IMG/VR virus record: IMGVR_UViG_3300020438_003185
Span: 322-64,321 of that record
Length of the DNA stretch: 64,000 nt
Source: a virus
Lineage: Duplodnaviria > Caudoviricetes
Strand: one strand, 5' to 3'
The translations under genes were made by a program, and so were the position numbers. The notes below the pieces were generated by a model. That model saw only the letters and a list, made by a program, of their open reading frames with translations. It was not told the origin of the DNA and did not search any database. Below, one piece after another: positions 2,080 to 38,600 of the stretch. Positions within the stretch are counted from its first letter, which is position 1. Each line of letters opens with the position of its first letter.

Positions 2080-3546
2080 ATGGAAGAAAAACTTTTAGAT
2101 ATAGGTGCAGAACGTGCTGTTCTGGCTGGACTTTTACAAAACGGTGTTGATACATACGTAAACATATCAGATCTACTATGTAGTGAGAGCTTTGTTAATC
2201 CTAATAATAAAATTATTTACAAATGCATAGAACATATTATAAGTAATGATCAAAAGCCAGATGTCGCCACGCTTTTAGCTGCTGCTGAACAGTTGAATTT
2301 CATAGAACAAATAAGTACTAAACAGGAGCTTAACTATATCAACTCTTTATATGAGTTTCCTGTTTCACAGGATAATATATTTAGCTTTGCCGTACAGATG
2401 AAGAAATTTGAGTTTGCACGTAAGATAAAAAACCTTACAGTAAAAGTTCATAAAGACATGGACGATGTTAATGGATCAGAAAGCATTAACGAAATCATAC
2501 AAAAGCTAGAAGATCCAGTAACAGATTTTTTGAGAGAAGACGATGGCGGTGAAAACCCAGAAAAAATAGGAGAAGGTATAGAAGATTATGTCACATTCCT
2601 CGAAGAAAATAAATGCGATATCATTGGTATACCCACGGGATTCTCTAGATATGACCAAGCCATTGGGGGTGGTCTTAGAAGAAAATGCGTTGACCTTGTA
2701 TCTGCAAGACCCAAAGTTGGTAAATCAGTGTTCGCTGATAATGTTGCCCTTAACGTATCTTCCACGGGAGTACCCGTATTAGTATTAGATACCGAGATGT
2801 CTAAAGAAGACCATCTTAATAGACTAATTGCTAACATAAGCGGTGTGCCTATCAACGAAGTCGCCACGGGACAGTTTATTGATGATCCTGTAAAGCACGA
2901 TAAAGTAAAAGAAGCTGTTGCTAAAATAGAATCAATCCCTTACAGCTATATAAGTGTGGCTGGCAAGCCATTTGAAAATATTGTGAATCTTATAAGAAGA
3001 TGGATAGTTCAGGAAGTTAAATCTGACGAGTCGGGTAAAACCAATGATTGTTTAATTATATATGATTATCTGAAGCTTATGTCTTCTTCATCTATAACAA
3101 ACAATATACAAGAGTATCAAGCTTTAGGGTTTCAAATCACTTCTTTGCATAACCTTTGTGTAAAGCTAGACATACCCTGTCTATCCTTTGTTCAATTAAA
3201 TCGTGACGGTATAACAAAAGAAAGCACTGACGCAGTTAGCGGGTCTGATAGACTTGTTTGGCTATGCACATCTTTTAGTATATTCAAATCTAAATCTACA
3301 GAAGAACTTGCTGAAGACGGTCCAAATGCTGGTAATAGAAAATTAGTACCTATTGTTTCTAGACACGGCGCTGGATTAGATGATGGAGATTATATTAATA
3401 TGCAAATGCAGGGCGCACACGCTAAACTTTTAGAACTGAAGACAAGAAATGAATTTAAAAATGCTCCTGTTGGCGACACTGGATTAATTTCAGACATAGA
3501 TAAGATTAAAGATGAACTTAAAGAAACTAAAGAAGACTCTGAATAA
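2080..3546 (+). CDS. dnaB: Replicative DNA helicase, DnaB family
   Basis: AERAVL N-terminus, GIPTGF, Walker A ARPKVGKS, TEMS, IIYDYL, QLNR. Confidence 0.95.
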   Translation: MEEKLLDIGAERAVLAGLLQNGVDTYVNISDLLCSESFVNPNNKIIYKCIEHIISNDQKPDVATLLAAAEQLNFIEQISTKQELNYINSLYEFPVSQDNIFSFAVQMKKFEFARKIKNLTVKVHKDMDDVNGSESINEIIQKLEDPVTDFLREDDGGENPEKIGEGIEDYVTFLEENKCDIIGIPTGFSRYDQAIGGGLRRKCVDLVSARPKVGKSVFADNVALNVSSTGVPVLVLDTEMSKEDHLNRLIANISGVPINEVATGQFIDDPVKHDKVKEAVAKIESIPYSYISVAGKPFENIVNLIRRWIVQEVKSDESGKTNDCLIIYDYLKLMSSSSITNNIQEYQALGFQITSLHNLCVKLDIPCLSFVQLNRDGITKESTDAVSGSDRLVWLCTSFSIFKSKSTEELAEDGPNAGNRKLVPIVSRHGAGLDDGDYINMQMQGAHAKLLELKTRNEFKNAPVGDTGLISDIDKIKDELKETKEDSE

Positions 3547-4534
3547 AAATATTGAAACTGTATTGCAGAAGCTTGGAATAGAATACGAAGCTTTTAGTGA
3601 TAATATATATTCAGTATGCCCATGTCACGAACATAGTGATAACCCAAGAGCTTTTTCTTATTCTATTGATAAAGGAATATGGAAATGTTGGACTAGAGAT
3701 TGTCAAAATGAATTTAACAATGACATATTTGGTTTAATAAAAGGTGCGTTATCGCAAAAAACTGGAACAGACCTTGAGTTTAAAGATGTATTAAAATGGG
3801 TATGTGAAGAATTTAAGATAGACAAAGGTAGTTACGAAGGATCTTCAACCCCTATAGAGCAAGAAGATGATTTTACAAATTTAATTAAATCAATATCTAT
3901 AAAGTCTAATACTAATTTTAATGACAAGGAAATAAATAATCCTTACTCAGTAGAATATCCCTCGGATTATTTCTTATCAAGAGGATTTAAAAAAACTACT
4001 TTAAAATATTTTAACGTGGGAGATTGTCATGATACAGGTATAATGAAAGAAAGGTCTATCATACCTATCCATGATGACTCTGGATATAAGCTAGTGGGAA
4101 TGATTGGTAGAACAATGAAGGCGTATAGAATGCCAAAATTTTTGATATATCCATCTGGCTTTAATAAGCGTCACTATTTTTATAATTATCATAGGGCAAT
4201 AGACAAAATCAAAGAAACTAATTGTTTATATATAGTAGAGGGTCAAGGAGACGTTTGGAAACTTCATGAGGCTGGAGTAAAGAATGCTGTTAGTATTTTT
4301 GGCAAAAGTATTTCCAAAGATCAAGAAAATAAGATAAAGAAATTACCCATAACAAGACTCGTAATACTCATGGACAATGATCAAGCCGGGAGAGAGGCTA
4401 GAGTCCAAATACAAAGACAGTTTGGAAGAATGTATAGGCTTACATTTCCACATTTAAGCGATAAAGATGTTGGAGACATGTCAGTATATAAGATTAAAAA
4501 AGATATTTTAAGCAATTTAAAAGGAACTTATTAA
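3512..4534 (+). CDS. dnaG: DNA primase (zinc finger + Toprim)
   Basis: CPCH...CWTRDC zinc finger; VEGQGD; MDNDQAG; KDVGD. Confidence 0.93.
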   Translation: MNLKKLKKTLNKNIETVLQKLGIEYEAFSDNIYSVCPCHEHSDNPRAFSYSIDKGIWKCWTRDCQNEFNNDIFGLIKGALSQKTGTDLEFKDVLKWVCEEFKIDKGSYEGSSTPIEQEDDFTNLIKSISIKSNTNFNDKEINNPYSVEYPSDYFLSRGFKKTTLKYFNVGDCHDTGIMKERSIIPIHDDSGYKLVGMIGRTMKAYRMPKFLIYPSGFNKRHYFYNYHRAIDKIKETNCLYIVEGQGDVWKLHEAGVKNAVSIFGKSISKDQENKIKKLPITRLVILMDNDQAGREARVQIQRQFGRMYRLTFPHLSDKDVGDMSVYKIKKDILSNLKGTY

Positions 4535-5259
4535 TGAAAATTATAGGTATAGCTGGCAGAAAACAATCTGGTAAAAACACTGTAGCTAATTACATTAACG
4601 GATCTATCTTACAGAGTTTAGATATGATATCTGATTTTGAGATTGGAAATAATGGAGAGCTTGAAATAAAAACTAAAGATAGCTCTGGCACTGATGGGTG
4701 GGGTGTTTTTGATGTGACTAGGAAAGATGAAGAATTTATAAGCTATGCGGAGAACTCTTTGTTTCCTTATGTAAAGGTATACCATTTTGCAGACCCTCTT
4801 AAGTTAATGGCTATAGATTTTTTTGATTTAGAACCACAGCAAGTTTATGGAACTGATAAAGATAAGAACACCTCAACGCCATACACTCAGAATGGTTGGA
4901 AGCATAAGATGACATCTAGAGAATTCTTACAGTACTTTGGCACAGAAGTTATGAGAAAGATAAAAGATACAGTGTGGGTGGACTACACTATAAAAAAGAT
5001 ACAACAAGAACAATCGTCTGTAGCAATCATACCTGACGTTAGATTTCCAAACGAGGTAGATGCAATTAAGAAAGCGGGAGGCGTAGTTATTAGATTAGAC
5101 AGGAATATCTATGACGACCAGCATGTTTGCGAAACCGCTTTAGATAAAGATAAATATGATTGGGATAATTTTGATTATATTATTAACAACAATGACTCTT
5201 CTCTGTCTGATTTATGTAAATCTTTAGGAAAGTTAAAACACTTTTGGAGTAACTTATGA
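4534..5259 (+). CDS. Deoxynucleoside monophosphate kinase (T4 gp1-like)
   Basis: IIGIAGRKQSGKNT, FADPLK, REFLQYFGTE, DVRFPNE, H..E. Confidence 0.9.
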   Translation: MKIIGIAGRKQSGKNTVANYINGSILQSLDMISDFEIGNNGELEIKTKDSSGTDGWGVFDVTRKDEEFISYAENSLFPYVKVYHFADPLKLMAIDFFDLEPQQVYGTDKDKNTSTPYTQNGWKHKMTSREFLQYFGTEVMRKIKDTVWVDYTIKKIQQEQSSVAIIPDVRFPNEVDAIKKAGGVVIRLDRNIYDDQHVCETALDKDKYDWDNFDYIINNNDSSLSDLCKSLGKLKHFWSNL

Positions 5260-6293
5260 TAATAACTTATGTCAGATCTTCTAGTTATAATAATTACTCC
5301 TATTGTGAGATGCAATATTTTATGACATATGTACTGGGCCACCAATCTAAAAGTGGCAAAAAGGCAGACATGGGTACAATGGTTCATAAAGTCATGGAAG
5401 TTTTAGCTGGATTAAAAAAGTATGAGCAAGACAAACCTAAAGTTAAATTCTTAAAAGTCGATGACGATGCTATTGGTAAGTTTAAATGTAGAAAAGAAGA
5501 ACTGCATACCGAGGAGTTAGTAAATCAATTAATTACTCTTAGTATAGATTCTTATGAAAAAAACTCTCCTCACAGCTTTAACGGTAAAGACAGAGGAGAA
5601 ATAGCTACAACGGCATGGTGCTTCCTAAAGCATAGCGACGGTCAATTCGACCCAAGGCTTAGAGACATACACTTTCCAGAGCCTCATTTTGATATACCGA
5701 TTGAAGAAGATTGGGCTAAGTTTGAGTATGAGATAGATGGAAAAATGATTCAAGGACAATTAGCAATCAAAGGCACGATAGACCTTGTTACCAAAATTAA
5801 TGATGACACAATCGAGGTAATTGATTGGAAAACTGGAAGAAGAATGGATTGGGCTACGGGAGAAGTAAAAGATTATAAAAAATTAGAAAATGACCCACAG
5901 TTATTGCTATATTATTATGCTATTTCTAAATTATATCCAGAGTTTCCTAACAGGATTATGAGTATATTCTTCTACAAGAACAAAGATGGAGATCCTGACC
6001 CATCACCCTTTAGTCTATGCTTTTCTCCAGAAGACGAAGAAAGGTTTTTAGAAATGTTAAAAAATAGGGTTGCAGAAATAAGGCAAAATATTACCCCTAA
6101 ACCACTAGATCCTAACAGAAAACACTGGAAATGTAAGAATTTGTGTCATTTTTGCAAGACTAAATGGGGTGATACAGACGACAATATGTGTATTTATATA
6201 GAGAAGCACTTAAAAGAACATGGAATGGACAAAACTATTGCAGATTGCAGTAGAGAAGGGTTTGACATAGGATATTATGAGGCTCCCGGCTAA
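5256..6293 (+). CDS. PD-(D/E)XK exonuclease, Cas4/RecB/AddB-like
   Basis: N-terminal YSYC, GTMVH, GTIDLV, IDWKTG, QLLLY and a C-terminal Cys cluster CKNLCHFC...C. Confidence 0.88.
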   Translation: MIITYVRSSSYNNYSYCEMQYFMTYVLGHQSKSGKKADMGTMVHKVMEVLAGLKKYEQDKPKVKFLKVDDDAIGKFKCRKEELHTEELVNQLITLSIDSYEKNSPHSFNGKDRGEIATTAWCFLKHSDGQFDPRLRDIHFPEPHFDIPIEEDWAKFEYEIDGKMIQGQLAIKGTIDLVTKINDDTIEVIDWKTGRRMDWATGEVKDYKKLENDPQLLLYYYAISKLYPEFPNRIMSIFFYKNKDGDPDPSPFSLCFSPEDEERFLEMLKNRVAEIRQNITPKPLDPNRKHWKCKNLCHFCKTKWGDTDDNMCIYIEKHLKEHGMDKTIADCSREGFDIGYYEAPG

Positions 6294-7147
6294 TGAAAAA
6301 AACTTTATCAATAGGAATGTGTACTCACGATGATATACATGGAGTGTATTTTTCTTTACAGGCTCTTAGATTATATCATCCAATAGTACAAACAGACGCT
6401 GTAGAATTAATAGTAGTAGATAATAATCCAGAATCTGTACATGGACAGGCTCTACAAAAATGGATTAAAGGCTGGTGTCAGGCAAAGGTTAAATACATAC
6501 CTTATACAGAAAAAAAATCTACATCATCAAGAAATCTAATATTTGAGAACGCAGAAGGAAAATACTGCATAAGCATGGATTGCCATGTAATGTTTCCTAC
6601 AGGATCTTTGGAATATCTTTTAGCCTATTATAAAGATAAACCAAACTGCAAAGATTTAGTTCAAGGACCATTAATGTATGATAATATACATGGATATTCC
6701 ACACATTTTAAACCAATGTGGGGAGGCGATATGTATGGTCAATGGGGAAAAAATACAGAGGAATGTGAAAAGGGTGTTCCTTTTGACATACCAATGCAAG
6801 GACTAGGAGTTTTTTCTTGTGAAACTAAAAACTGGCTAGGGTTCAACCCTCTTTTTAAAGGTTTTGGTGGAGAAGAAGGATACATACACGAAAAATTTAG
6901 GCAACATGGAGGAAGAGCAGTTTGTATACCTCAATTCAAATGGTTGCACAGATTTTTGAGACCAGACGGCGTTACCTATCCGTTGGTTTTAGAGGATAGA
7001 GTTTGGAATTATTTTGTTGGATGGTTAGAATTAAAAAAAGATCCTAGCCATCCAATGATTAAAGAAATATATGATAATTTTAGCAAGCGTATGAAAAAAG
7101 AAAAAATAGACGAGATATTGAGACTAGCAATTCAAACTATTACATAA
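6293..7147 (+). CDS. Glycosyltransferase family 2 (GT-A)
   Basis: LIVVDNN, SRN, MDCH (DxD-like), FKGFGGEE. Confidence 0.85.
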   Translation: MKKTLSIGMCTHDDIHGVYFSLQALRLYHPIVQTDAVELIVVDNNPESVHGQALQKWIKGWCQAKVKYIPYTEKKSTSSRNLIFENAEGKYCISMDCHVMFPTGSLEYLLAYYKDKPNCKDLVQGPLMYDNIHGYSTHFKPMWGGDMYGQWGKNTEECEKGVPFDIPMQGLGVFSCETKNWLGFNPLFKGFGGEEGYIHEKFRQHGGRAVCIPQFKWLHRFLRPDGVTYPLVLEDRVWNYFVGWLELKKDPSHPMIKEIYDNFSKRMKKEKIDEILRLAIQTIT

Positions 7148-7969: not shown

Positions 7970-8648
7970 CATAGACAAACTGATTAAATCAGAGCCAAAC
8001 ATAGATGATGTTGGTTATCTAAAAAACAAGATGACATATCAAGATGATATTAATAATAATATTGTTAAGATAGATTGGTTGAAAATTCTTGATGCTCCCC
8101 CTAAAAATAGTAATCCAAAGACTACTAGAGAACTACACGCTATTAGTAAGGCTACTGTGAACAGAACTTCCAAAGAAGTAGATTTAGTCATAAGGGTAGA
8201 CAGAGATCCAGTGGCTTTATTTGTTGATTTTTTGGAAAAGAAAAATTTGAAATTCCCAAAGAGTAAATTTTATACATTTTATGATTTCCTTGAGCCTTAT
8301 ATATATGGATTGAAATATCACTTTAATAGGGCTAGGCCAGAACAACTTGCCCACTATCATAATATAAACTTAAAAATTCTTTATACAGACAGTCATCACA
8401 CGCCGTCTTATCCTAGCGGTCACGCTATGTACGCTGAACTGGCAGCTAATATATTATCTGACGAATATCCAGAATACAAATCTAATTTTTTTGAAATAGC
8501 AAAATTTTGTGGATTGGCTAGAGTTCTACAGGGAGTACACTTTCCATCAGATAACGAAGCTAGCGTTAAAGCGGTTAGTGTATTATATCCTTTAATAAAG
8601 AAAGGTATAGAAAATGTCAAAACCAGTAAAGAGTTTCCCTTTAAGTAA
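7953..8648 (+). CDS. PAP2-superfamily phosphatase
   Basis: Three PAP2 motifs: KYHFNRARP, PSYPSGH, RVLQGVHFPSD. Confidence 0.9.
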   Translation: MSIISNIDKLIKSEPNIDDVGYLKNKMTYQDDINNNIVKIDWLKILDAPPKNSNPKTTRELHAISKATVNRTSKEVDLVIRVDRDPVALFVDFLEKKNLKFPKSKFYTFYDFLEPYIYGLKYHFNRARPEQLAHYHNINLKILYTDSHHTPSYPSGHAMYAELAANILSDEYPEYKSNFFEIAKFCGLARVLQGVHFPSDNEASVKAVSVLYPLIKKGIENVKTSKEFPFK

Positions 8649-8712
8649 TGTTCCTTCACCAAAAGAGCCAGTAAAAAGACCATTACCACCATTGCAAAAA
8701 CCTAAAAATTAA
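8614..8712 (+). CDS. Possible small Pro/Lys-rich peptide (32 aa)
   Basis: MSKPVKSFPLSNVPSPKEPVKRPLPPLQKPKN; AAAGG upstream; fills the gap before the dnaE promoter. Confidence 0.35.
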   Translation: MSKPVKSFPLSNVPSPKEPVKRPLPPLQKPKN

Positions 8713-8714
8713 CT

Positions 8715-8762
8715 TTGTGAAATATTGAACAGGATGGTACAATCCTATAGGATAGATTGTAC
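8715..8762 (+). promoter_or_regulatory. Sigma70-like promoter of dnaE with overlapping inverted repeat
   Basis: TTGTGA(8715)-N17-TACAAT(8738) with extended -10 TG; inverted repeat GTACAATC-N10-GATTGTAC at 8737-8762; AGGAG RBS follows. Confidence 0.6.
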
Positions 8763-8783
8763 ATTGACTTAGGAGATAGCTAA

Positions 8784-10349
8784 TTGAATTGGTTTCCATT
8801 GAAGAACTTTACGCATTATAGTTTATTAAAAGGCTTTTCCAAGCCACATGAATTAGCGAAGATGTGTGCTGATAAAGACTACCCAGCTTGTGGTATTACA
8901 GATTACAAGTCTATATCTGGAGCGGTGTCTTTTCATCAAGCCTGTAAAAAAGTTGGAATCAAACCTATCATTGGCTGTTCATTTGATAGCACAACTGTAT
9001 ATGCCAAAAACAAAGATGGTTGGCACGATCTAATTCAGATGGTATCTATGACAGACGAAAATGGTAATATGCCTAAAGACATAGCCAAGGATATAATTAG
9101 TAGAAATAACTTGGTTGCATTACAGAAGTCGAAAGATAATATCAAGCCTGCGTATTACGTAAAGAAAGAGCAGTCTGTTTTACATAGGGTATTATTATGC
9201 TCTGCCCTAAAAACTACTTTGCCTAAAATCAATACTAAAATTAGAAACAATAAGTTAGAGCCAGAAATTTTAGAATATTTTCAGAAAGATGACAAGTGTG
9301 TGATAGAAGGTAAAGTTACTAAAGAATTAGAGTATATATATAATTCGTGTGAAGAGTACGACATACTTAACCCTCCTATGCTTCCAAACTTTGTATGTCC
9401 CAACGGAATGTCTCAAGAAGATTATTTAACACATATGGCAAGAACTGGTTATACAGAATTACTTAAGCCAAAAGTAGGAAAAGATAAAGACAAGCAGAAA
9501 ATATACGGAGACAGGTTTCACAAAGAATTAGAAGTTATTAGAAATGCAGATCTATTTGGATACTTTTTAATTGTACAGGATATAATTAGACACATAGAAA
9601 AGGATATGGGATGTTTAGCTGGTCCGGGCAGAGGTTCTGCTGCTGGATGTTTAATATCATATCTAGTAGGTATTACCAAGATAGATCCAGTAGAACACGA
9701 TTTATTGTTTGAAAGATTTTATAATGCAGGACGCAATACTGGAGGTAATGTTTCTCTGCCAGATATAGACATGGATGTTCCGGGCAAGAGACGGGATGAT
9801 GTTATAGATTATTTAAAAGACACATATGGACATGAGCATGTCAGTCAAATGATTACATTTGGAAGACTACAGGGGCGTAGCGCAATAAAAGAAGTTCTTA
9901 GAATAAATGAGGCTTGTTCTTTTAGTGAGATGAATGCTATAACAAAGAGTATACCTAACGAGGCAGACGTTTCCGATCAGCTTGCAGAAATGGACGATGA
10001 AGACAGGTCTATCATAAGATGGTCTTTGATTAATAGGGCAGATGATTTAAGAGATTTCTGCTATATAACAGATGATGGAAAACTTGAAGGTGATTATGCA
10101 GAATATTTTCAGCAAGCTATTGACATGGAGGGTACATTTAAGACTCAAGGTAAACATGCTGCTGGCGTAGTCATATCTAAAGACAAGTTAAAAGATGTCT
10201 GCCCCATGATACAACAGAAAGGTTCTACAGAAAAAATAGCAGGATTAGAAATGTCTGATCTAGAAGCACTAGGTCATGTAAAATTTGACGTTCTAGGAAT
10301 TAATCTTCTAGATAAACTTATGAAAATAAAGGAACTAAAAAATGGCTAA
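8784..10349 (+). CDS. dnaE: DNA polymerase III alpha, N-terminal part (reduced PHP, palm, thumb)
   Basis: THYSLLKG, IKPIIG, GPGRGSAAG, LLFERF, PDIDMD, HAAGVVI, KFDVLG; TTG start with AGGAG. Confidence 0.93.
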   Translation: MNWFPLKNFTHYSLLKGFSKPHELAKMCADKDYPACGITDYKSISGAVSFHQACKKVGIKPIIGCSFDSTTVYAKNKDGWHDLIQMVSMTDENGNMPKDIAKDIISRNNLVALQKSKDNIKPAYYVKKEQSVLHRVLLCSALKTTLPKINTKIRNNKLEPEILEYFQKDDKCVIEGKVTKELEYIYNSCEEYDILNPPMLPNFVCPNGMSQEDYLTHMARTGYTELLKPKVGKDKDKQKIYGDRFHKELEVIRNADLFGYFLIVQDIIRHIEKDMGCLAGPGRGSAAGCLISYLVGITKIDPVEHDLLFERFYNAGRNTGGNVSLPDIDMDVPGKRRDDVIDYLKDTYGHEHVSQMITFGRLQGRSAIKEVLRINEACSFSEMNAITKSIPNEADVSDQLAEMDDEDRSIIRWSLINRADDLRDFCYITDDGKLEGDYAEYFQQAIDMEGTFKTQGKHAAGVVISKDKLKDVCPMIQQKGSTEKIAGLEMSDLEALGHVKFDVLGINLLDKLMKIKELKNG

Positions 10350-11022
10350 TAGAGACTATATTGTATTTGACTTTGAAACTGGGAGTAGAAATCCTAATAA
10401 AACCCAACCTACACAAATTGCAGCAATTGCGCTAGACGGTCGTAACCTAGCTATGAAGGGGTCTTTCAACAGCGAGATTAAACCTATACTAGATGACGAC
10501 AAAGCTATAGCCGCTGGACTAGATCCAATTGAAGATGGAGCTTTAAAAGTAACTGGTAAAAATAGAAAAGACTTAGCCAAAGCTCCAGCTCTAAAATCTG
10601 TATGGAAAAAGTTTTGTTCTTTTGTAGATCAATATAATTGGAAAAAAGATCCATTCTTTAATCCTATACCAGTAGGGTTTAACATCATTGGTTTTGACAT
10701 GATTATTATTAATCGTTTGTGTAAAGAATATGGACCTTTTGACGATGGTAGGCAACAGCAAAAGATCTTTAGTAAGATTCATAAATGTGATGTCATGGAC
10801 AATATGCACATGTGGACAGAGGGTGATCCTAGCATTAGATCAATTAGTATGGACACTCTACGTGAACGTATGGGATTGTCTACAGAAAATGCACATGATG
10901 CGCTGCAAGATGTTAAGGATACAGCTAATATATTCATAAAGCTATTGAAGACTCATAGAGCAGTATATCAAAACATTGAACTGGACAAGGCGTTTGCAAA
11001 CGGAAATTTGTATGTCAAATGA
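10342..11022 (+). CDS. DEDDh 3'-5' exonuclease (DnaQ/epsilon-like)
   Basis: ExoI VFDFETG, ExoII GFNIIGFD, ExoIII HDALQD. Confidence 0.9.
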   Translation: MANRDYIVFDFETGSRNPNKTQPTQIAAIALDGRNLAMKGSFNSEIKPILDDDKAIAAGLDPIEDGALKVTGKNRKDLAKAPALKSVWKKFCSFVDQYNWKKDPFFNPIPVGFNIIGFDMIIINRLCKEYGPFDDGRQQQKIFSKIHKCDVMDNMHMWTEGDPSIRSISMDTLRERMGLSTENAHDALQDVKDTANIFIKLLKTHRAVYQNIELDKAFANGNLYVK

Positions 11023-12577
11023 ATATGACGATAAAGAAACTTGGAAGCTATTTGAAGAAGGTAAAACCAAGGGTGTCTTCCAGCTAGAAAGCAACCTTGG
11101 TAAGTCTTGGTCAAAAAAACTTTCTCCTCATAATATTGAAGAGTTGTCTGCACTCATCGCTATTATTAGACCGGGATGCTTAAAAGCTTTGGTAGATGGT
11201 AAATCTATGACCCAGCACTTTATTGACAGAAAGCACGGAAGAGAAGAGGTTACATACCTGCATGAATCTTTAGAAGAGATTTTACTGCCCACATACGGAG
11301 TACTCGTATACCAAGAACAGTCTATGCGTATTGCACAAAAGGTGGCAGGATTTAACCTACAGGAAGCAGATGAGCTACGTAAAGCAATTGGCAAGAAAAA
11401 AGCGGACTTGATGGCTAAGGTTAAGACTAATTTTATCAAAGGTGTTAAAAAGGTAGGAATGGTTGATAAAGAAACAGGAGAAGAAATATTTAGTTGGATT
11501 GAAAAATCTTCTAGATATGCATTTAATAAGTCACATAGTATATCATATGCTGTATGTTCTTATTGGAGCGCTTACCAAAAGGCTCATAATACTAAAGAAT
11601 TTTTCTTATCTTATCTATATTATGCTAACGAAAAACAAGATCCCCACCAAGAAATATACGAATTAATTTCTGAAGCCAAGCTATTCGATATAGAACCAAG
11701 AACACCAAGCGTTGCAAACTTTGACGTAAAGTTTAATATAAAGAAAAACAAGGTGTACTTTGGTATTAAAGATATCAAATCTCTCACTGGTAAAACAGGG
11801 GACAAAGTGATAGATGCTATATCAGAAGCGGAAACTGAACTAAAGAAAAAGATAAATAAGTTTAATTGGATTGAAATATTATTATTTTTCGCACCAAAGA
11901 TGAGTTCTACCGCCTTCAAAGCTTTAGCATCTATAGGATTCTTTAGAGATTTTAACGGTAAGGTTTCTAGGAATAAAGCAATATATGATTATGATATATA
12001 TAGGACGCTGACTAAGGCAGAGCAAAGCTGGATACAAAAAAAATATGAATCTAAAAAGTGGACAGACTTTATTGACTGCCTAAAAGATCTCTCGCCTACA
12101 AAAAAGAATGGCGGCGGTACAAGCAGGGTAGAAAGGCAGCAAATTGTTGAAAATGAAATACAACTCTTGGCAAACCCACCGTATGATTTAAATGATGATC
12201 CATCTTGGATTATAGATCAAGAGACTAGGTATTTGGGATGTCCTATAACAATGTCCAAGATAGATACAGCTGATAAGTCCTCTGCCAATACTACATGTAA
12301 AGATATAGTCAATGGCAAGAACGGTAAAGGCATATGCGTGGTAGCAAATATACAACGCATGGCAGATTACACAATCAAAAAGGGCGACTCAAAGGGACAG
12401 GCCATGTCTTTTCTGACAATAGAAGATGACACATGTGTGCTAGACAGTGTGGTTATATTCCCCAAGGTTAAGCAAAAATACAAGTATGTATTATACGAAG
12501 GAAATAATCTTATGTTTTGCGGATCTGTAGGTAAAAAAGACTCTTCTTTGATTGTAGATAAAGTTCATGAAATTTAA
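11012..12577 (+). CDS. dnaE: DNA polymerase III alpha, C-terminal part (fingers, HhH, OB)
   Basis: GVFQLES, IRPG, TYGVLVYQEQ, ADELRKAIGKK, YAFNKSH, OB fold with MSFLTIEDDT. Start placed at ATG 11012 (MSNEYDD); the track uses TTG 10976. Confidence 0.93.
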   Translation: MSNEYDDKETWKLFEEGKTKGVFQLESNLGKSWSKKLSPHNIEELSALIAIIRPGCLKALVDGKSMTQHFIDRKHGREEVTYLHESLEEILLPTYGVLVYQEQSMRIAQKVAGFNLQEADELRKAIGKKKADLMAKVKTNFIKGVKKVGMVDKETGEEIFSWIEKSSRYAFNKSHSISYAVCSYWSAYQKAHNTKEFFLSYLYYANEKQDPHQEIYELISEAKLFDIEPRTPSVANFDVKFNIKKNKVYFGIKDIKSLTGKTGDKVIDAISEAETELKKKINKFNWIEILLFFAPKMSSTAFKALASIGFFRDFNGKVSRNKAIYDYDIYRTLTKAEQSWIQKKYESKKWTDFIDCLKDLSPTKKNGGGTSRVERQQIVENEIQLLANPPYDLNDDPSWIIDQETRYLGCPITMSKIDTADKSSANTTCKDIVNGKNGKGICVVANIQRMADYTIKKGDSKGQAMSFLTIEDDTCVLDSVVIFPKVKQKYKYVLYEGNNLMFCGSVGKKDSSLIVDKVHEI

Positions 12578-12581
12578 GTTG

Positions 12582-12610
12582 TTGTTTATAGTTGTACAAG
12601 CTAATATACT
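12582..12610 (+). promoter_or_regulatory. Sigma70-like promoter upstream of ssb and the glycosylation genes
   Basis: TTGTTT-N17-TATACT in the intergenic gap, TTGTACAA palindrome in the spacer, AGGAG RBS downstream. Confidence 0.45.
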
Positions 12611-12625
12611 AAGATAGGAGAAAAT

Positions 12626-12931
12626 ATGAATAATTGTTGTTTTACAGGATACTTTACAGAAAACCCACAGACCTCTGTGGTAGACAATGTAGTATTAGCA
12701 GAGTTCGTTATAGTTACTTATAGCTATAGAAAAACAAAAAGTACTGGGGAAAAAAGTAAAATGCCAACGTACTTACACTGTGAAGCATGGCACACGGGTG
12801 CAGAAACGCTAGAAAGATTTGCTACAAAAGGCACGAAGATAACATTTAATGCTACTGCTAAAAATATATCAAGAGACGACGAGAGTATAGTATTTAGAAT
12901 AAACGAATTCGATTTGTGCATGGAGGAATAG
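12626..12931 (+). CDS. ssb: Single-stranded DNA-binding protein (short OB fold)
   Basis: MNNCCFTG....P N-terminus, YLHCEAW..AE.....KG; no long acidic tail. Confidence 0.8.
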   Translation: MNNCCFTGYFTENPQTSVVDNVVLAEFVIVTYSYRKTKSTGEKSKMPTYLHCEAWHTGAETLERFATKGTKITFNATAKNISRDDESIVFRINEFDLCMEE

Positions 12932-19693: not shown

Positions 19694-20144
19694 CTTTGGT
19701 GTTTATATGAATTCTCTTGGCGACCCTACTTTGTCTAAAGATATATTTACAGAAATCAGTAGAGGTCTTGATGAAAATCTAATAGAGGATGCTAGTATTT
19801 TTTATGATCAAATTGGACATCTAGAAGATCCTGCTCCTTGTGGGCTGTTTCATTCTTCTGATTTATGGAATTTTGAAGGACATCTATTAGTTTTGTCCAT
19901 TAGTTCTGCGTTAAGAATAGTTAATATAGCTAATCATATACAGATTATACTGGGTTATGGTTGGGGGCAAAAAAACACGCTGGCTACACTAAAAATATTA
20001 GAAGATAAAAAAGTAAATACAATATGTCTTTCAGAAGATTTAGCTAATGATTTCTACAGAATAAGCGGAAGGCGGGCTATAGGTTATTCGTCAAACTTTA
20101 AAAACACAATTAACATGATTACGGACCAATACAATGATAAATGA
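19686..20144 (+). CDS. Hypothetical protein
   Basis: Coupled ORF closing the glycosylation cluster; alpha/beta pattern. Confidence 0.65.
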   Translation: MINFGVYMNSLGDPTLSKDIFTEISRGLDENLIEDASIFYDQIGHLEDPAPCGLFHSSDLWNFEGHLLVLSISSALRIVNIANHIQIILGYGWGQKNTLATLKILEDKKVNTICLSEDLANDFYRISGRRAIGYSSNFKNTINMITDQYNDK

Positions 20145-20904
20145 AAAAGAAATAGTTAAATTATATACAGATAAAAATAAAAGCACTTACGATCTTGCAA
20201 AAATGTATAGTACATATCCTAATAAAATTAGACGCATACTTGTTAAGCATGGCGTACAATTAAAAACAAAAAGCGAAGCACAAAAAAACGCCCTTGTTAG
20301 TGGTAAATCTAAGCTACCAACAGAGGGTAAGCATAGGACTAAAGAAGAAAGACTAAAGATTAGTTCTGGCCTTCAAAAAAGATGGCAAAACATAGATAAA
20401 GAAACATATGAAGCACATGTTAATAGGGCTAAATTAAGATGGGTTAATATGTCTCAAGAAGAAAAAAATAACATGACTCAAGCTGCGATCAAAGCTATAC
20501 AAATAGCTGGTAAAGAGGGGTCTAAGTTAGAAAAGTTTCTAAGAAATGAGTTTATGAAAAATGGTTTCAATGTACAGGTTCACACTAAAAATATTATACC
20601 AAATGAAAACTTGGAGATAGACCTGTACTTTCCCAATTTAAAGACTATAATAGAAATAGATGGGCCGTCACACTTTCTTCCAATCTGGGGCGAAGAGAAG
20701 TTGCAGAAACAAATAAAATCAGATTCTCATAAAACAGGGTTGATATTAGGAAAGGGATTTGCTATAATAAGAGTAAAACACCTGTCAGATTCTTTGTCAC
20801 TAAGTAATAGAGAAAAATTGAAAGATAGGCTTATTCAGATGTTGCGTGACATCCAAACCAAGTTTCCAAAAAAATCTCAAAGGTATATTGAAATTGAGGC
20901 ATGA
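20134..20904 (+). CDS. HTH + DUF559/Vsr-like endonuclease (possible free-standing homing endonuclease)
   Basis: N-terminal HTH (STYDLAK..TYPNKIRRIL), basic linker, SKLE, EIDLYFP..IIEIDG.SH. Confidence 0.72.
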   Translation: MINEKEIVKLYTDKNKSTYDLAKMYSTYPNKIRRILVKHGVQLKTKSEAQKNALVSGKSKLPTEGKHRTKEERLKISSGLQKRWQNIDKETYEAHVNRAKLRWVNMSQEEKNNMTQAAIKAIQIAGKEGSKLEKFLRNEFMKNGFNVQVHTKNIIPNENLEIDLYFPNLKTIIEIDGPSHFLPIWGEEKLQKQIKSDSHKTGLILGKGFAIIRVKHLSDSLSLSNREKLKDRLIQMLRDIQTKFPKKSQRYIEIEA

Positions 20905-32671: not shown

Positions 32672-35600
32672 TTATACTTGGAAGTGACCCTTAGTATGTA
32701 AAATCATTTCATCTACGCCGGATGCTGAAGTTTCAACGTGCATATTTAATGGATCGCCAGAATTATTGATACTCTCCATTACACTTCCTGATATAGAAAG
32801 ATTAAAAATATCATCTCCAGAATTATCGGCTATTCCTAAAACGCCAAAGGTATTCAACCTTAGTTCTATATCATTATACACATTTCCTATACCGGAAGGC
32901 TTAATGAGATTCATACTAGAAGACGTAGAAGGAGGCTTTCCGCTTATGAATAATCTATTATATCCTGCCAAAAATGTTCCAAAGTAATAAGCTCCATGAA
33001 TTTGTTCGATAAATGGCCTGTGGGACACATATCCCTTTGGATTAGAATCTTGTCCTGAAGCTTCTACAAATATTTCACCCTTTTCGTTAGCATATACTAT
33101 ACCACCTTGATATAGATTGTTGTTTGTTTTTGTGCCGTTTTTGAAATCAAACAGAAGGTATTTTTCATGATCTTGTACGTTCATGCTTCCGAATATTCTG
33201 CCAGCTAAATTTGTGTCTGGATGAGAAAAGGAAGGAGCTTGTCTTCTAAGCATTGCGTCATAGTTGTAAACAGCTCCACCAGAAGATAGTATTTGAGACG
33301 AGATTCCAGAACCATAAGAATGAGAAGGACTACCTACTACCAATGTATAATCTTGATCGGATCTAGCGTTTCTGTCTAGAGCAATAGATCTTCCAAAGAA
33401 ATCATTTTCATTTACAGAGTTGTAACCTTGAGGTATAAGCTTCTGTATGTATACCCAATCTTGTCTCTTTGATCCCCAATCAGAAATTTTATTTTCATAA
33501 GTGTAAACTGCTCCTTGATTGCCTGAGCCACCAATAGCAAAATCGTTTTTATCTATTTGTGTTATATCAAATTGATCATTGAATTCTTTTCTAACAAATT
33601 CCCCAGAAGCTCCGACATCAGCCGTCTTTACTATGTTAGCAGTTCCATCATGAGATGGTGCTGAGATAACTAGAACATCACCATCAACATCAAAAGACAT
33701 GCCAAATTGATCGCCAGCATTTAATGTGTCTGGTCTAAATTTCCTAGTACACGACCAAGCCGTTTGAACTGACAAGTTGGTAACATTTGTTTGATTATAA
33801 TCTCTAGTAAATTTATAAACAGATCCAGCGCCACCATTAGATCCTAAATCAGCATTTAATAAAGGTGTGTTTGGAGAGTTATTTACAACTTCATCCCAAG
33901 ACGTAATGTTCTGTCCAGAGAAAGCAGCAAAAGGTGCAGAAACATAAACTTCACCTTTATGTATTTTTACCTTATATCCGAATAAGTCGCCCGGATAACC
34001 AGACATGTGAGGTTGCATTTCGTGGAAATCTAAAAAGTCATATCCAAATGTTTTCATTAAGGAGTTGCGACCTTCTCCATAGCCATTGTCTTCATATGTT
34101 ACGCCGTCAATATCAACCTTAAATCTACACCAAGTTCCCATAGAAACCATATCTCCAGAGAATGCAGATATTCTTCCAAGTCTGGCATTTTCTATGGCAA
34201 CATCATCAATTGGTGGCATTGGACTTTTAAATGTCTGGTAGCTTGGCGCATTAGCCCTTGCTGGTTCAAGTGGAGCAAGCCAAGGTCTGCCCGGATAAGT
34301 CAGGGAAGCTTCATCATTACCAAACCGGCTCGGATCTTTAATAGAATTCTGAGTATAACCTCCAAAGAGATTATTAAATCCACTATTAATTTCAGAACTC
34401 ATTAATTTAGCAGGACTAGTTTTTTCTGGAGAAACAATTTTCAACATACTTTCATATCTTAAAGTTCCTCCATATTCATCCTCGTAATAAACATCACTTT
34501 CTTCACTCCTATAATCCGCTGGATATAGACTTCTTAAGAACGATATAACATCTCCATTAATCCAATTCTCTCTGTCAGGAAGTCTAACATTACTTCCTTG
34601 AATTAGGCTGGCATCACTAATGACTGTAATTCTAGATTTTTCAGCACCAGTTAGGAAAGGTCTCTGATAATAAATTTCTTGTGCAGCTGTAACTGGTCCG
34701 TCTGCAAGCTCTGGGCCGGGAGTTCCAAAACCCTCTTCGCTACGACAAAAATCAGTTGGGCAATATTTACTGCTATCAGAACTAATTTCTTGTATTACTT
34801 CTCTAGTACTAATAGAAGCAGGAGTGCCTTCAGAAACTAACTCTGTTCTTGTGCTATAAATTGGTCGCTGTTGAGTTTTAGTGATAGTTCCTATCTTGAC
34901 TCCAGATATACCTATCAATCTTTGAGTGAATATTGATTCTGGGTCAATTGTTTCTACGCCATAATTATCACCTTGTATGTATACAGATATACCAGAAGCG
35001 CCAGATGGAACAGTAAAGTCGAAATGATGCGTATAGTTTATTCCTCCATAATTTCCTATAGGCCAAACATCTATAGTAGATGCTTCCTCTTGTGGCCCTT
35101 GTCGATACTGAGACTCACCTATGCTATATTTGGAGTCAATTGTGATATAACTATCTCCCCCGTAAACTAATGGATCTCTTAATTCTGACATTTCATTATT
35201 TAGCGGTGTTGTGATAATATTCGCAGCACCGTTGACATTGCTAACATAAACACCAAGAACTCGCTCTTCAGATCTACGTTCAGATGAAAAAGTTGTAAAC
35301 ATTCTATAAGTTTGTTCAGGTTCTACTGGGAAATCAATCCTCGCAGTACCTGTTCTCATAAAGGGGGTTCCAGTGTCAGCAGTTCTTTTATCAACAATTT
35401 TTGCATCGTAATATAGAAGAGTATTAACAGCGAAATTATTTTCAAAACAAACTGCCAAATATTTTTGAACAAACACATCGCTTACACTATTTAACTTAGA
35501 AAGTTCTCCTCTTTTACCTTCTATAAAGTTAGTATTAAAACGATTTATAACAAGGCCATCTATACGGCTACCTGTGCCACGAGGTATACTCTGTAGAGGC

Positions 35601-38600
35601 AAGCTTGGAAGTCCTGTATCCTCCAATGTTGCATACTTATGTTTACTGTCTAAATACAAAGGTCTAATATTTGATCCTAGTTTAGACAAGGTGGTTTGTA
35701 ACTTAGCTACTCTGCTGAAAATCTCTTCCCCCAAACTGTTATCCCAATTTTCATTGATGTCTCGACTCATACGTGGCCCAACAGTAATTACGATCTTTCT
35801 ATTCTCTGCGCCATTAAGCCACAGTTTTAACTGTGCTGCTTCTTGGTCACTAGGAATATTGTCAGTATTTGCTATCCATAAAACATCAAACTGAGAAGCT
35901 ACTTGATTTATCTGTGACATCTGTACATTTTCAAATACTTCATAGTTTAATACCCACTGGAACGTGCTGGCAAGTCTAGACTCATCATAACCATCAACAA
36001 AAGATGTTCGTTCCGTCCAACCACCCAGTTGTGCAACTCTAGTGTTTCCATTAGATGTTTTATCTAAAAGGTTCATATAGAAGATAACATTTGTGTCACC
36101 ACCAGAAGATAGAGACCGTGAAGATTCAAACTCAGTTGTGGTCATAACAACTATCTTGGCAGTAGTATTTAGCAATTGTTCTTCCACGCAAATTGGAAAT
36201 GTATCTTGAACTTCTACATTATAGTCTTCTGTTTCTTCCAATATTTCAGATCTTGCCATGAACAAGGCATTTTTATTATTTTGTTCTAAAATTGGATTAT
36301 CTTTATCAAAGAATAGACTATTAGATTCTGTTCCAAATTCATTATAATTCAAGTATGTATAGTTACCACTGTCATGCGTAATACCAAATTCTATTTCTGT
36401 ATGCACATTGTTATCATCAAACTCAGGAAAATCAACAACAGTCTCATATCCAGATATATATTTTACTTGTCTATAACGGGGTCCAGTAGCTGGTATAACC
36501 TTTGTAATAATTTTCTTTTCTGCTGCTGCTAAAATAGGAATAGGTTCATAATTTTTCTTTGGATATTCTGGGCAAGGTATAGCATCATCACAGCACCCAC
36601 AGTTATAAGTCTCTGGAAGATTATGAGTACCATAAACTAAAGCAAGGTTAACTTTGAAATTAACTTTATTATTACGACAATCAAAGCACTGATCTGACCA
36701 CTCTGCTCTAAGGTCTCCTTCGTGTTTAATGACATGATTACATCTGTTATTAAGTTCAAAATAACCTTGCTGCTTACCGGCAGCTATAAGAGAAGCAAGT
36801 TCATCTAACCCTTGAAGTATATTGTCTACTTTAGGTTTGCTACAGCTATAACTTCTATAGATGTTTTCATCATACAATCTGATATCAGCAACCCCAGAGC
36901 CTCGCATATTTCCACCCGACACATACGTATAAGTAGTATTTGATGGTACAAAGGATGGTATATTGTTATAATATATACCCGTGTCTTGATCTACCATAGA
37001 CTCATATCTACTAGCAGCTGGATATAACCTCATTCTAGAATCCAAGTTAGTCAAGAGCCTGTTAATAATAGAATTAGAATTAAAGTATGCTCCACTTCTT
37101 CCGTATTGATCAGTTTCAAATACGGGATCATCACCCACTAATACAAGGTGTCTATCACCTAGCCCCAACCAATTTTGAATGTTATCTATGTATTCTTTAC
37201 TAAGCCTATCTATCTCTGGAGTGATTATAAATAGTAACCCAACTTCTGGTGGAATTTCTGGATCTTCAAATCCACTTTCTACATATCGTTCACTGCCATA
37301 AGTAGCTTTAAATAATTCATCATAGTATCTATCCAAGTGATTGTCAGCATCTTCAATAGTTAAATCTTTATCTGTCAATAGATATTTACTTTTTTCTATA
37401 GATCTATGCAAGTTACCCCACGCTCCGAATTGCATAACTTTGTCATGCTCGAAATATTTTCTAGCCTGCAAAACTCTTACAGCACCAGCATTAACGTTAG
37501 AAAACCATTGTTGTGGATCACTAGCCATTCGTCCCGGCTTATACCATAAAAGCCCTGCGTCAGTAGCGCCAATACTATCAGTTGGAGACCCTATAGCAAG
37601 TAAGGTTCCATCCTCATTTAAGTCCACGCTATAACCTAGTCTTGGATTAGGCATATACTTAGAAGTTAGCCAATTCCAAGAGTGATTAGGATTTATTTGA
37701 GAATCATTTATTTCTGTGGACAAGGAGTACCCTGTATACACATCATTGTAAGCAAGTCTGTAAGTGTATTGACCGCTAGGAGATAGGTTGTCATATACTT
37801 CCACGGCGGCTTGTCTTCGACCCGTAGCATTAATGGCAGTGCGTTTTTTGAACAAGTAAGAAGTTTTAGCTTCTCTTAATTCTAAAACATCGCTGATTCC
37901 AACTCGTTGTACCCAATTTCCAAAATAATCGTAAAAATAATTGAAAGAACCATAACCATAAGATTGTTCATAAACTCTAACTTGAGAGGACATGTATGGA
38001 GAACCTATTACTAAAGCACTACCGTCTTCGCTAATCGCTACATCATGACCAAATCTATCCACAGCAACAGCGCTGCTAGTAGTAGGGGAATCAATTCTCT
38101 GTATAGTTTTCCAACCATCGTCAAATTTTTCAAATACAAACACAGCTCCACCACTAGGAGGAGCTATATTAAATCCGGGTGTTGAAGGATTAAATGTACC
38201 AAAGTTAGATCCAGCAAATAATTTAAAATCTAGTGTTTCTATCAACCTGTTTATATTTAAAGTAGAATCTAATAAACTTATAGCTTGACTAAACCAAACT
38301 TCTTTATTTTCAAAACGTCCTCCATCATCATCACTATCGGTTGTATCATCCCTGCCATCGTTACCGCCGATACTTGTAACTATAGAAGGTCTAGCGGGTT
38401 GATTTAAATGATTTACCAACCCATTATCATAAGCTTCTTGAGAAACCCAACTCATAAATCTTTCTAATCCACCATCGCCTTCAATGGAAGTGTTGTTAGT
38501 AGAACCAACAGCCCTTGTGCCGTAAGATAACGATGTGTCTACAAAGAATCCAACTATAGCGGGCTGATTACTATTTTGTTTAGATGAGTCTTGGTAATAA

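Follow-up and report, generated by a model that had tools for sequence, protein, structure and literature searches.

The virus record IMGVR_UViG_3300020438_003185 (Duplodnaviria; Caudoviricetes), from an uncultured marine phage, encodes the C-family DNA polymerase DnaE in two genes, dnaE-N and dnaE-C, with the gene of a DEDDh 3'-5' exonuclease between them. We analyzed a stretch of 64,000 nucleotides (positions 322 to 64,321 of that record), hereafter the window, which is nearly the whole record (64,321 bases). The replicative polymerase of this phage is very probably built from two separately translated, non-covalently associating proteins, and the exonuclease probably joins the complex. The genes and their junctions are the following.

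8784-10349, + strand: dnaE-N, 521 amino acids (aa), TTG start; PHP (shortened), palm and thumb
10342-10349, + strand: junction 1, exonuclease ATG overlapping the dnaE-N stop codon, 8 nt
10342-11022, + strand: DEDDh 3'-5' exonuclease gene, 226 aa; candidate proofreading subunit
11012-11022, + strand: junction 2, dnaE-C ATG overlapping the exonuclease stop codon, 11 nt
11012-12577, + strand: dnaE-C, 521 aa from the ATG at 11012; fingers, HhH/beta-binding region and C-terminal OB fold

The TTG start of dnaE-N is preceded by AGGAG, 8 nt upstream, and the exonuclease ATG has AGGA 8 nt upstream. The overlap of these two genes reads ATGGCTAA. The exonuclease is read in frame +1 relative to dnaE-N, and dnaE-C in frame +1 relative to the exonuclease; the dnaE-C frame is open from 10976, with its ATG at 11012. 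Pfam gives a partial PHP match in dnaE-N (residues 10-106, profile positions 6-112 of 164; PF02811, E 7.7e-17) followed by a full DNA_pol3_alpha domain at residues 214-505 (PF07733, E 2.7e-68). The middle gene is assigned to RNase_T/DEDDh (E 7.9e-13). Residues 4-148 of dnaE-C correspond to DNA_pol3_finger (PF17657, E 8.2e-49), and its HHH_6 match scores 20.3 bits, under the 25.6-bit cut-off. The hallmarks of DnaE are therefore present, namely a palm with the Asp triad, an N-terminal PHP domain and fingers, HhH and OB regions collinear with the alpha subunit, but they are spread over two open reading frames (ORFs) in different frames with the exonuclease ORF between them, and not over a single polypeptide.

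For each of the three proteins an alignment of 58 rows of split relatives was built. The catalytic Asp residues D327, D329 and D502 of DnaE-N are invariant in it, as are all five catalytic residues of the exonuclease (D10, E12, D119, H185 and D190) and the blocks TKGVFQLES, RPG and YQEQ of DnaE-C. AlphaFold models made from these alignments reached a pLDDT of 90.7 and a pTM of 0.87 for DnaE-N, with the PHP fold present and a terminal helix at 507-520, and a pLDDT of 88.7 and a pTM of 0.74 for DnaE-C, with a beta-barrel (OB) at 438-520 and no tau-binding tail. The top Foldseek matches of both models are DnaE structures: TM-scores rise to 0.73 for DnaE-N, and DnaE-C aligns over about 535 columns with full-length DnaE chains and also matches separate OB folds. 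Each polymerase half is predicted to fold confidently on its own onto DnaE structures.

The position of the break was mapped by alignment. DnaE-N 193-510 aligns with E. coli alpha 271-563 and DnaE-C 5-273 with alpha 591-852, and the cut therefore lies between alpha residues ~574 and 587. This is one helix beyond the KFD motif that bears the third catalytic Asp, in a short variable linker. The closest one-piece relative, P0001 (1,052 aa), is 54% identical to the N half of the window and 48% to the C half. Window N 1-515 matches P0001 1-529 and window C 3-520 matches P0001 538-1051, which places N521 at P0001 residue 535 and C1 at residue 536. Judged by this alignment, the two chains together would hold exactly the residues of a one-piece chain, none missing and none extra. 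Since N521 and C1 abut on P0001, there is no room for an intein. The break-side ends are the least conserved stretches of the N and C alignments, as for a linker.

Nothing that could rejoin the halves was recognized at the break. No intein-related Pfam family matched the window N and C proteins at E<=0.01, in a scan whose positive control, a split-intein piece from the related locus L069, matched Hint, Hom_end_hint and Intein_splicing (E 7e-6 to 5e-3). The first piece does not end with an N-intein and the second does not open with a C-intein followed by a nucleophile. Rfam gave no match at E<=1 over 8600-12700, and therefore no known intron. An intein at the break was ruled out by the lack of a family match together with the exact abutment on P0001, and a group I or II intron by the lack of an Rfam match. 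The original prediction, which was made from the sequence of the window, had described a DnaE in two intein-less genes with an exonuclease gene at the break. The ORFs, the domains and the abutment on P0001 bear this out, as do its details: all three catalytic Asp lie in the N gene, the C gene holds fingers, HhH region and OB collinear with DnaE (by Pfam, by alignment with E. coli alpha and by the model), the DEDDh gene is intact, and intein motifs are absent from the junctions in a scan with a working control.

Recognizable split inteins are used in this clade, but not at the palm/fingers break. In the loci L069-L071, dnaE-N is broken a second time, at the GRG/SAAG site, by a genuine split intein (L069:6001-7966; L070:3950-6714). 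The first piece there ends with an N-intein (Cys start, TxxH block) and the second opens with a 35-residue C-intein whose HN end precedes a Ser. In L070 and L071 an ORF of 291 aa, with matches to DUF7487 and to the N-terminal part of TnsA-like endonucleases, lies between the intein halves. This arrangement is of the "fractured gene" type; the polymerase would begin as three DnaE pieces, two of which the intein rejoins. Two other proteins, P0124 (891 aa) and P0219 (881 aa), are continuous over the palm/fingers site and are ended later, within the fingers, by an N-intein piece, and in P0231 (762 aa) the N half is fused to a circularly permuted YpsA SLOG domain. These forms indicate that the same gene was fractured at several sites in the clade. 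Finally, the metagenomic relative L077 (5950-7963) shows an apparent intein-less break of DnaE immediately ahead of the LPDID(M/T)D motif, where the frame shifts and some 70 residues are added; it may be a true split, a programmed frameshift or an error.

Contigs from three other studies span the junctions, with no indel at either. Junction 1 is covered by a contig of run X2 (10289-10530, 0 differences) and one of run X5 (10259-10379), and junction 2 by contigs of run X3 (10722-11181) and run X5 (10689-12700). An assembly error as the cause of the split was ruled out by these independent contigs. Apart from a compensating pair at 11472 and 11477, within dnaE-C in a single contig of X5, no indels are listed. 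An X5 joint from 9737 to 11479, skipping 1741 and resting on a 24-letter side with under 95% likeness, is treated as another strain or an artefact. Compared with the relatives L002, L013, L016 and L017, the proportion of synonymous differences (pS) is 0.62-0.81, near saturation, versus a non-synonymous proportion (pN) of 0.02-0.17 in all three genes, and the corresponding rate ratio (dN/dS) is 0.015-0.115 where computable. All three genes are under strong purifying selection.

The arrangement is widespread. Scanning IMG/VR with a protein gave 79 loci with 50-91% identity, and scanning it with a profile gave at least 528 matching stretches, the top 80 of which were retained. From 158 fetched IMG/VR loci, 116 were informative, i.e. 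they contained the N end and a complete C. The N-exonuclease-C split order occurs in 115 of these 116, the remaining one (L081) being fused. A scan of metagenomes added 33 further loci of this order, some of them on the same contigs as in IMG/VR, along with 34 bacterial-type loci (27-34% identity) that are single-frame with no such exonuclease nearby. A search through 1.84 billion cluster representatives gave 4,381 proteins that match N with E<=1e-30. In the best 150 representatives of 50%-identity clusters, 140 end within 25 residues of the N-half end; the others comprise 7 that continue into the fingers, 1 fragment and 2 with other tails, and no N-exonuclease fusion was present among these 150. 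The survey for the same break point in other phages that the original prediction had proposed thus found it in nearly all of the relatives covered. No close isolate was found in the INPHARED phage records, where identities are all below 60% and at most 39% among the matches listed.

The polymerase content of whole genomes was followed in the records of five relatives (G001-G005, behind loci L004, L027, L033, L032 and L048), four of which are at least 94% complete and two of which carry terminal repeats (149-167 kb). Each record contains exactly one DNA_pol3_alpha match, and neither PolA nor PolB gave any match in the five. The full-length split DnaE appears to be the only DNA polymerase found in complete relatives.

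One-piece forms also exist. A length-restricted search yielded P0001-P0003 (1,052 aa) and about 20 more relatives of 1,099-1,519 aa, some of which carry inteins; beyond these, identity falls to at most 38% (bacterial DnaE). The two fused loci with genomic context, L081 and L166, both came from profile scans. The exonuclease gene lies immediately upstream of the fused dnaE in L081 and 1.1 kb upstream of it in L166, a metagenome locus. Scans of IMG/VR and metagenomes with single proteins or three sequences returned no loci of the P0001 or P0011 type.

Phylogenies were computed with FastTree (140 rows, 1,024 columns) and with IQ-TREE under the posterior mean site frequency (PMSF) approach (44 rows, 925 columns, six bacterial outgroups). 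Both agree on a monophyletic phage clade with split rows on either side of the basal fork. The fused rows occupy three places of the tree, and the branches starred in it force three changes. Under hypotheses named after the FastTree tree had been seen, the approximately unbiased (AU) test rejects a single clade of all 26 split rows (log-likelihood difference, delta lnL, 204.6; p 7e-5) as well as a single clade of all 12 fused rows (delta lnL 192.2; p 3.7e-5), which implies at least three changes of state. As read from these trees, which within-gene recombination could distort, the split/fused state appears to have switched at least three times, with one-piece forms nested among split ones. Rooting on the outgroup makes the split state ancestral, and each of the three changes is then a re-fusion; wherever the root is placed, two or more of the changes share a direction. 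This interchange within the clade is an argument for the same function in the two-piece and the one-piece enzyme.

The PHP domain of the window is shortened by about 85 residues and has lost its usual metal ligands, as originally described: the nine ligand columns, HHDHEHCDH in bacterial DnaE, read KFKYSSSPY (0/9 kept). All of these ligands are lost in the subclade of the window. Since the PHP site of the window is dead, the DEDDh exonuclease is the only candidate proofreader in this phage. However, 27 of the 58 split relatives retain all nine ligands, reading HHDHEHHDH. Decay of PHP therefore came after the split and the exonuclease gene, and the view that a degenerate PHP domain accompanies the split did not survive. 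Loss of PHP as something tied to the split was rejected on the same count.

The original prediction also held that the overlaps imply translational coupling. The spacing was counted over 146 loci; that from exonuclease to C was not available in 10 of them, which leaves 136. The number of loci in each class is as follows.

Overlap: N to exonuclease 39, exonuclease to C 43
0-30 nt: N to exonuclease 3, exonuclease to C 4
31-150 nt: N to exonuclease 3, exonuclease to C 46
151-1000 nt: N to exonuclease 95, exonuclease to C 40
Over 1 kb: N to exonuclease 6, exonuclease to C 3

Both junctions are tight, as in the window, in just 18 of 136 related loci. Junctions of relatives contain Endonuclease VII-type ORFs, FkbM and TylF methyltransferases, YopX, an HNH-like ORF with a helix-turn-helix (HTH) and an ORF of 163 aa of unknown family. 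Such nuclease and methyltransferase inserts at many junctions mean that translational coupling is not conserved. The overlaps of 8 and 11 nt stand as described, and coupling would be a feature of the compact allele of the window and not of the system. The junctions are insertion hot spots. In the window the DEDDh gene, which is no homing endonuclease, is alone between the pieces; the Endonuclease VII and HNH-like ORFs at the junctions of many relatives are additional to the exonuclease.

Some of the inserted ORFs deserve mention in their own right. The ORF of 163 aa (no Pfam family; L001:7559-8050), located between dnaE-N and the exonuclease gene, shows a presence/absence polymorphism among near-identical marine phages, and its variant was seen in run X3 as a loose end at 10334. 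The gap of 155-240 nt between N and exonuclease in relatives (L001-L159) holds small conserved ORFs of 58 aa (39 loci) and about 77 aa (28 loci), which the window lacks and which belong to no known family; they may encode further small subunits or be unrelated.

How the proteins might work together can be outlined. DnaE-N and DnaE-C would be translated separately and associate non-covalently to form one active site. DnaE-N would supply the degenerate PHP domain, the Asp triad of the palm and the thumb, and DnaE-C the fingers with their dNTP- and template-binding motifs, the HhH region and the OB fold, i.e. the parts that bind duplex and single-stranded DNA. The helix at the end of DnaE-N, which by alignment is the start of the fingers domain in single-chain enzymes, may pack onto DnaE-C. 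Like epsilon in E. coli, the exonuclease probably becomes part of the complex, where it would edit mismatches. We infer the association of N with C from the divided parts of the active site, the one-piece homologues and the synteny; that of the exonuclease, with its role in proofreading, is suggested by synteny, intact catalytic residues and the dead PHP site. With two separate proteins and nothing to splice them, non-covalent assembly is the most likely outcome. The three-chain replicase of the original prediction is thereby supported in its two-gene intein-less design, its conservation and the selection on it, while the binding of all three chains to each other is something that we infer. 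A complex prediction with full N, residues 1-250 of C and the exonuclease, from the 58-row alignments, scored 0.00 in both runs and is evidence neither way.

Several observations weigh against a three-protein replicase of this kind. In most relatives 155 nt to 6 kb, often whole genes, lie between the pieces, so tight co-translation is not required. The complete PHP site of 27 of the 58 relatives means that the clade as a whole need not rely on the exonuclease as its one proofreader. Among solved structures the exonuclease profile matches a PolC-type exonuclease domain best (2p1j, E 8e-10) and reaches a chain named DnaQ (8h18) only at E 0.007; by these matches the exonuclease does not look specifically epsilon-like. 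The record of the window is estimated to be about 40% complete, so that the claim of an only polymerase rests on the relatives. The C-terminal domain of the beta-clamp (PF02768, the sole clamp family searched) had no match in G001-G005, which leaves the processivity of the polymerase unexplained; it could come from a host clamp, from a divergent clamp or from none. Lastly, the signal in RNA libraries consists of two 151-nt contigs (run X20) inside dnaE-C only. This is too little to claim transcription and may be DNA carry-over.

Some of these points would suit an exonuclease that is an independent nuclease, acting in repair, recombination or degradation of host DNA next to a two-chain polymerase of which it is no subunit. 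Its closest solved matches are generic DEDDh enzymes (a PolC-type exonuclease domain, exonuclease I and entries named exodeoxyribonuclease III), the PHP site is intact in nearly half of the relatives aligned, and unrelated genes (Endonuclease VII, FkbM methyltransferase, YopX) also occupy the junctions. We nevertheless consider this unlikely, though worth keeping in mind. The exonuclease gene stands between the halves in all but one of the informative loci and at most 1.2 kb upstream in the two fused loci whose context is known; its product has invariant DEDDh residues and is assigned to phrog_192 of PHROGs ("DNA polymerase exonuclease subunit"); and the PHP ligands are all lost in the subclade of the window. 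At the opposite end, the exonuclease could be the obligate keystone of a heterotrimer, docked at the palm-fingers seam and required for assembly of the two halves, so that its presence gates polymerase activity, the two-piece form being ancestral in the clade and the one-piece form regenerated several times; we regard this combination as distinctly improbable.

Other readings dispense with two free-standing polymerase chains. Two programmed +1 frameshifts at the overlaps would give a single N-exonuclease-C polyprotein, PolC-like but with the exonuclease between palm and fingers. Each gene is indeed +1 relative to the preceding one and a run of six A precedes the first ATG, yet a TAA two codons before the exonuclease ATG in its frame leaves just an 8-nt window for the shift, and no frameshift signal was found at the junctions. 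Moreover, the genes are separated by more than 150 nt in 101/146 loci (N to exonuclease) and 43/136 (exonuclease to C), often by whole genes, and N-exonuclease fusions are absent from the 150 nearest cluster representatives. We hold such a polyprotein to be very improbable. An unrecognised intein, intron or trans-splicing element that joins the halves after translation or transcription is hardly credible: the clade does use split inteins (L069-L071; P0124, P0219), but the abutment of N521 and C1 on the one-piece sequence spares no residues for one, no intein family (E<=0.01) or Rfam family (E<=1) was matched, and the conserved exonuclease ORF fills the whole interval. The split genes might also be decaying remnants in a phage replicated by the Pol III of its host, a view that the missing PF02768 domain in five relatives' records would fit. 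Strong purifying selection on all three genes, invariant catalytic residues, the same form kept in 140/150 nearest clusters, and a module of helicase, primase and SSB encoded alongside make decay highly unlikely.

It is useful to compare the proposed assembly with known polymerases. In E. coli the genes dnaQ and dnaE are not known to be linked. The Pol III core of this bacterium (DnaE plus DnaQ; 2HNH, 5FKU) resembles the system of the window in its inactive PHP site, its separate DEDDh exonuclease gene and its collinear domains. However, E. coli alpha is one chain where the window has two, the exonuclease of the window is not specifically epsilon-like, DnaE-C lacks the tail for tau, and no clamp gene was found in the relatives. 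PolC has its exonuclease inserted covalently into the PHP domain. The PolC of Firmicutes (3F2B) thus shares with the window a DEDDh exonuclease embedded within the polymerase coding region, whereas the exonuclease of the window is a separate ORF downstream of the palm and not an insertion within one chain.

Split C-family polymerases have been described in other forms. Cyanobacterial dnaE-n/dnaE-c and three "fractured" DnaE loci from ocean metagenomes, with free-standing endonucleases, are split by inteins (Dassa et al. 2009, PMC2677866). The two genes recall the window, but protein trans-splicing ligates those halves, whereas the window has no intein residues at its break and a different break site. 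Among the relatives, L069-L071 carry a split intein of this type, with a free-standing endonuclease between the pieces in L070 and L071. The same paper also summarizes intein-less genes in pieces in T4-related phages, namely the PolB gp43 of Aeromonas phages and the NrdA of Aeh1. These enzymes of replication, like that of the window, must reassemble non-covalently, and homing-type nucleases are likewise found at the junctions of many relatives of the window. There, gp43 is a family B enzyme and the intervening gene a selfish endonuclease; the window has a family C enzyme and, in between, a conserved candidate for a functional partner (115/116 loci).

Group 2.2 jumbo phages encode a minimal Pol III alpha module as two distant genes, with PolB also present (Iyer et al. 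2021, PMC7824862). It is again a C-family catalytic module of phages in two stand-alone proteins with no inteins. The module comprises only the core nucleotidyltransferase and template-binding parts, with the break inside the catalytic domain, versus a full-length DnaE in the window; and the accompanying family B polymerase differs from the relatives of the window, where DnaE is the only polymerase found. In the record of the cultured Cellulophaga phage phiST (KC821604), DnaE is annotated as two adjacent coding sequences, gp044 (525 aa) and gp045 (673 aa), with no intein (positions 3292-6892; L160). Its break precedes the LPDIDTD motif, at the position seen in L077; the pieces have no exonuclease gene between them, and identity to the window is only 25-48% in aligned segments.

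The arrangement N-exonuclease-C, with a full-length DnaE cut at palm/fingers, was not described in the full-text literature searched, supplements and subscription-only papers being outside its coverage. The available parts of PMC2677866, PMC3919608, PMC7824862, PMC12926913, PMC3201878 and PMC11348598 contain no such description. Within that coverage the architecture therefore appears new.

C-family replicases have so far been studied as single alpha chains or as chains rejoined by inteins. Here, a very large group of phages, widespread in marine and freshwater environments, would use a replicase with a cut that separates palm from fingers. Alleles in one piece, in two pieces, split by an intein and split twice all occur within one clade and provide a ready-made series. 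This series bears on the assembly of the Pol III active site, on the recruitment of a proofreader with PHP dead or alive, and on the breaking and rejoining of essential genes by mobile nucleases and inteins. Annotators of viromes should not take half-length "DnaE" calls for pseudogenes.

The three genes belong to a region with further replication functions in the window.

2080-3546, + strand: DnaB-like helicase, upstream replication module
3512-4534, + strand: primase, upstream replication module
4534-5259, + strand: dNMP kinase, upstream replication module
5256-6293, + strand: PD-(D/E)XK nuclease, upstream replication module
12626-12931, + strand: short SSB-family gene (Pfam), downstream neighbour conserved among relatives

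Elsewhere in the window, two giant ORFs are located at 32672-46243 (- strand) and 46249-54159 (- strand). The one of 2,636 aa encodes a tape-measure protein (PhageMin_Tail); its length implies a very long tail and points to a long-tailed phage. The other, of 4,523 aa, carries FG-GAP repeats close to the C-terminus and matches no further family. An ORF at 20134-20904 (+ strand), amid unannotated genes downstream of a glycosyltransferase cluster, matches PHROG 559 (HNH endonuclease) and has no Pfam match at E<=0.001.

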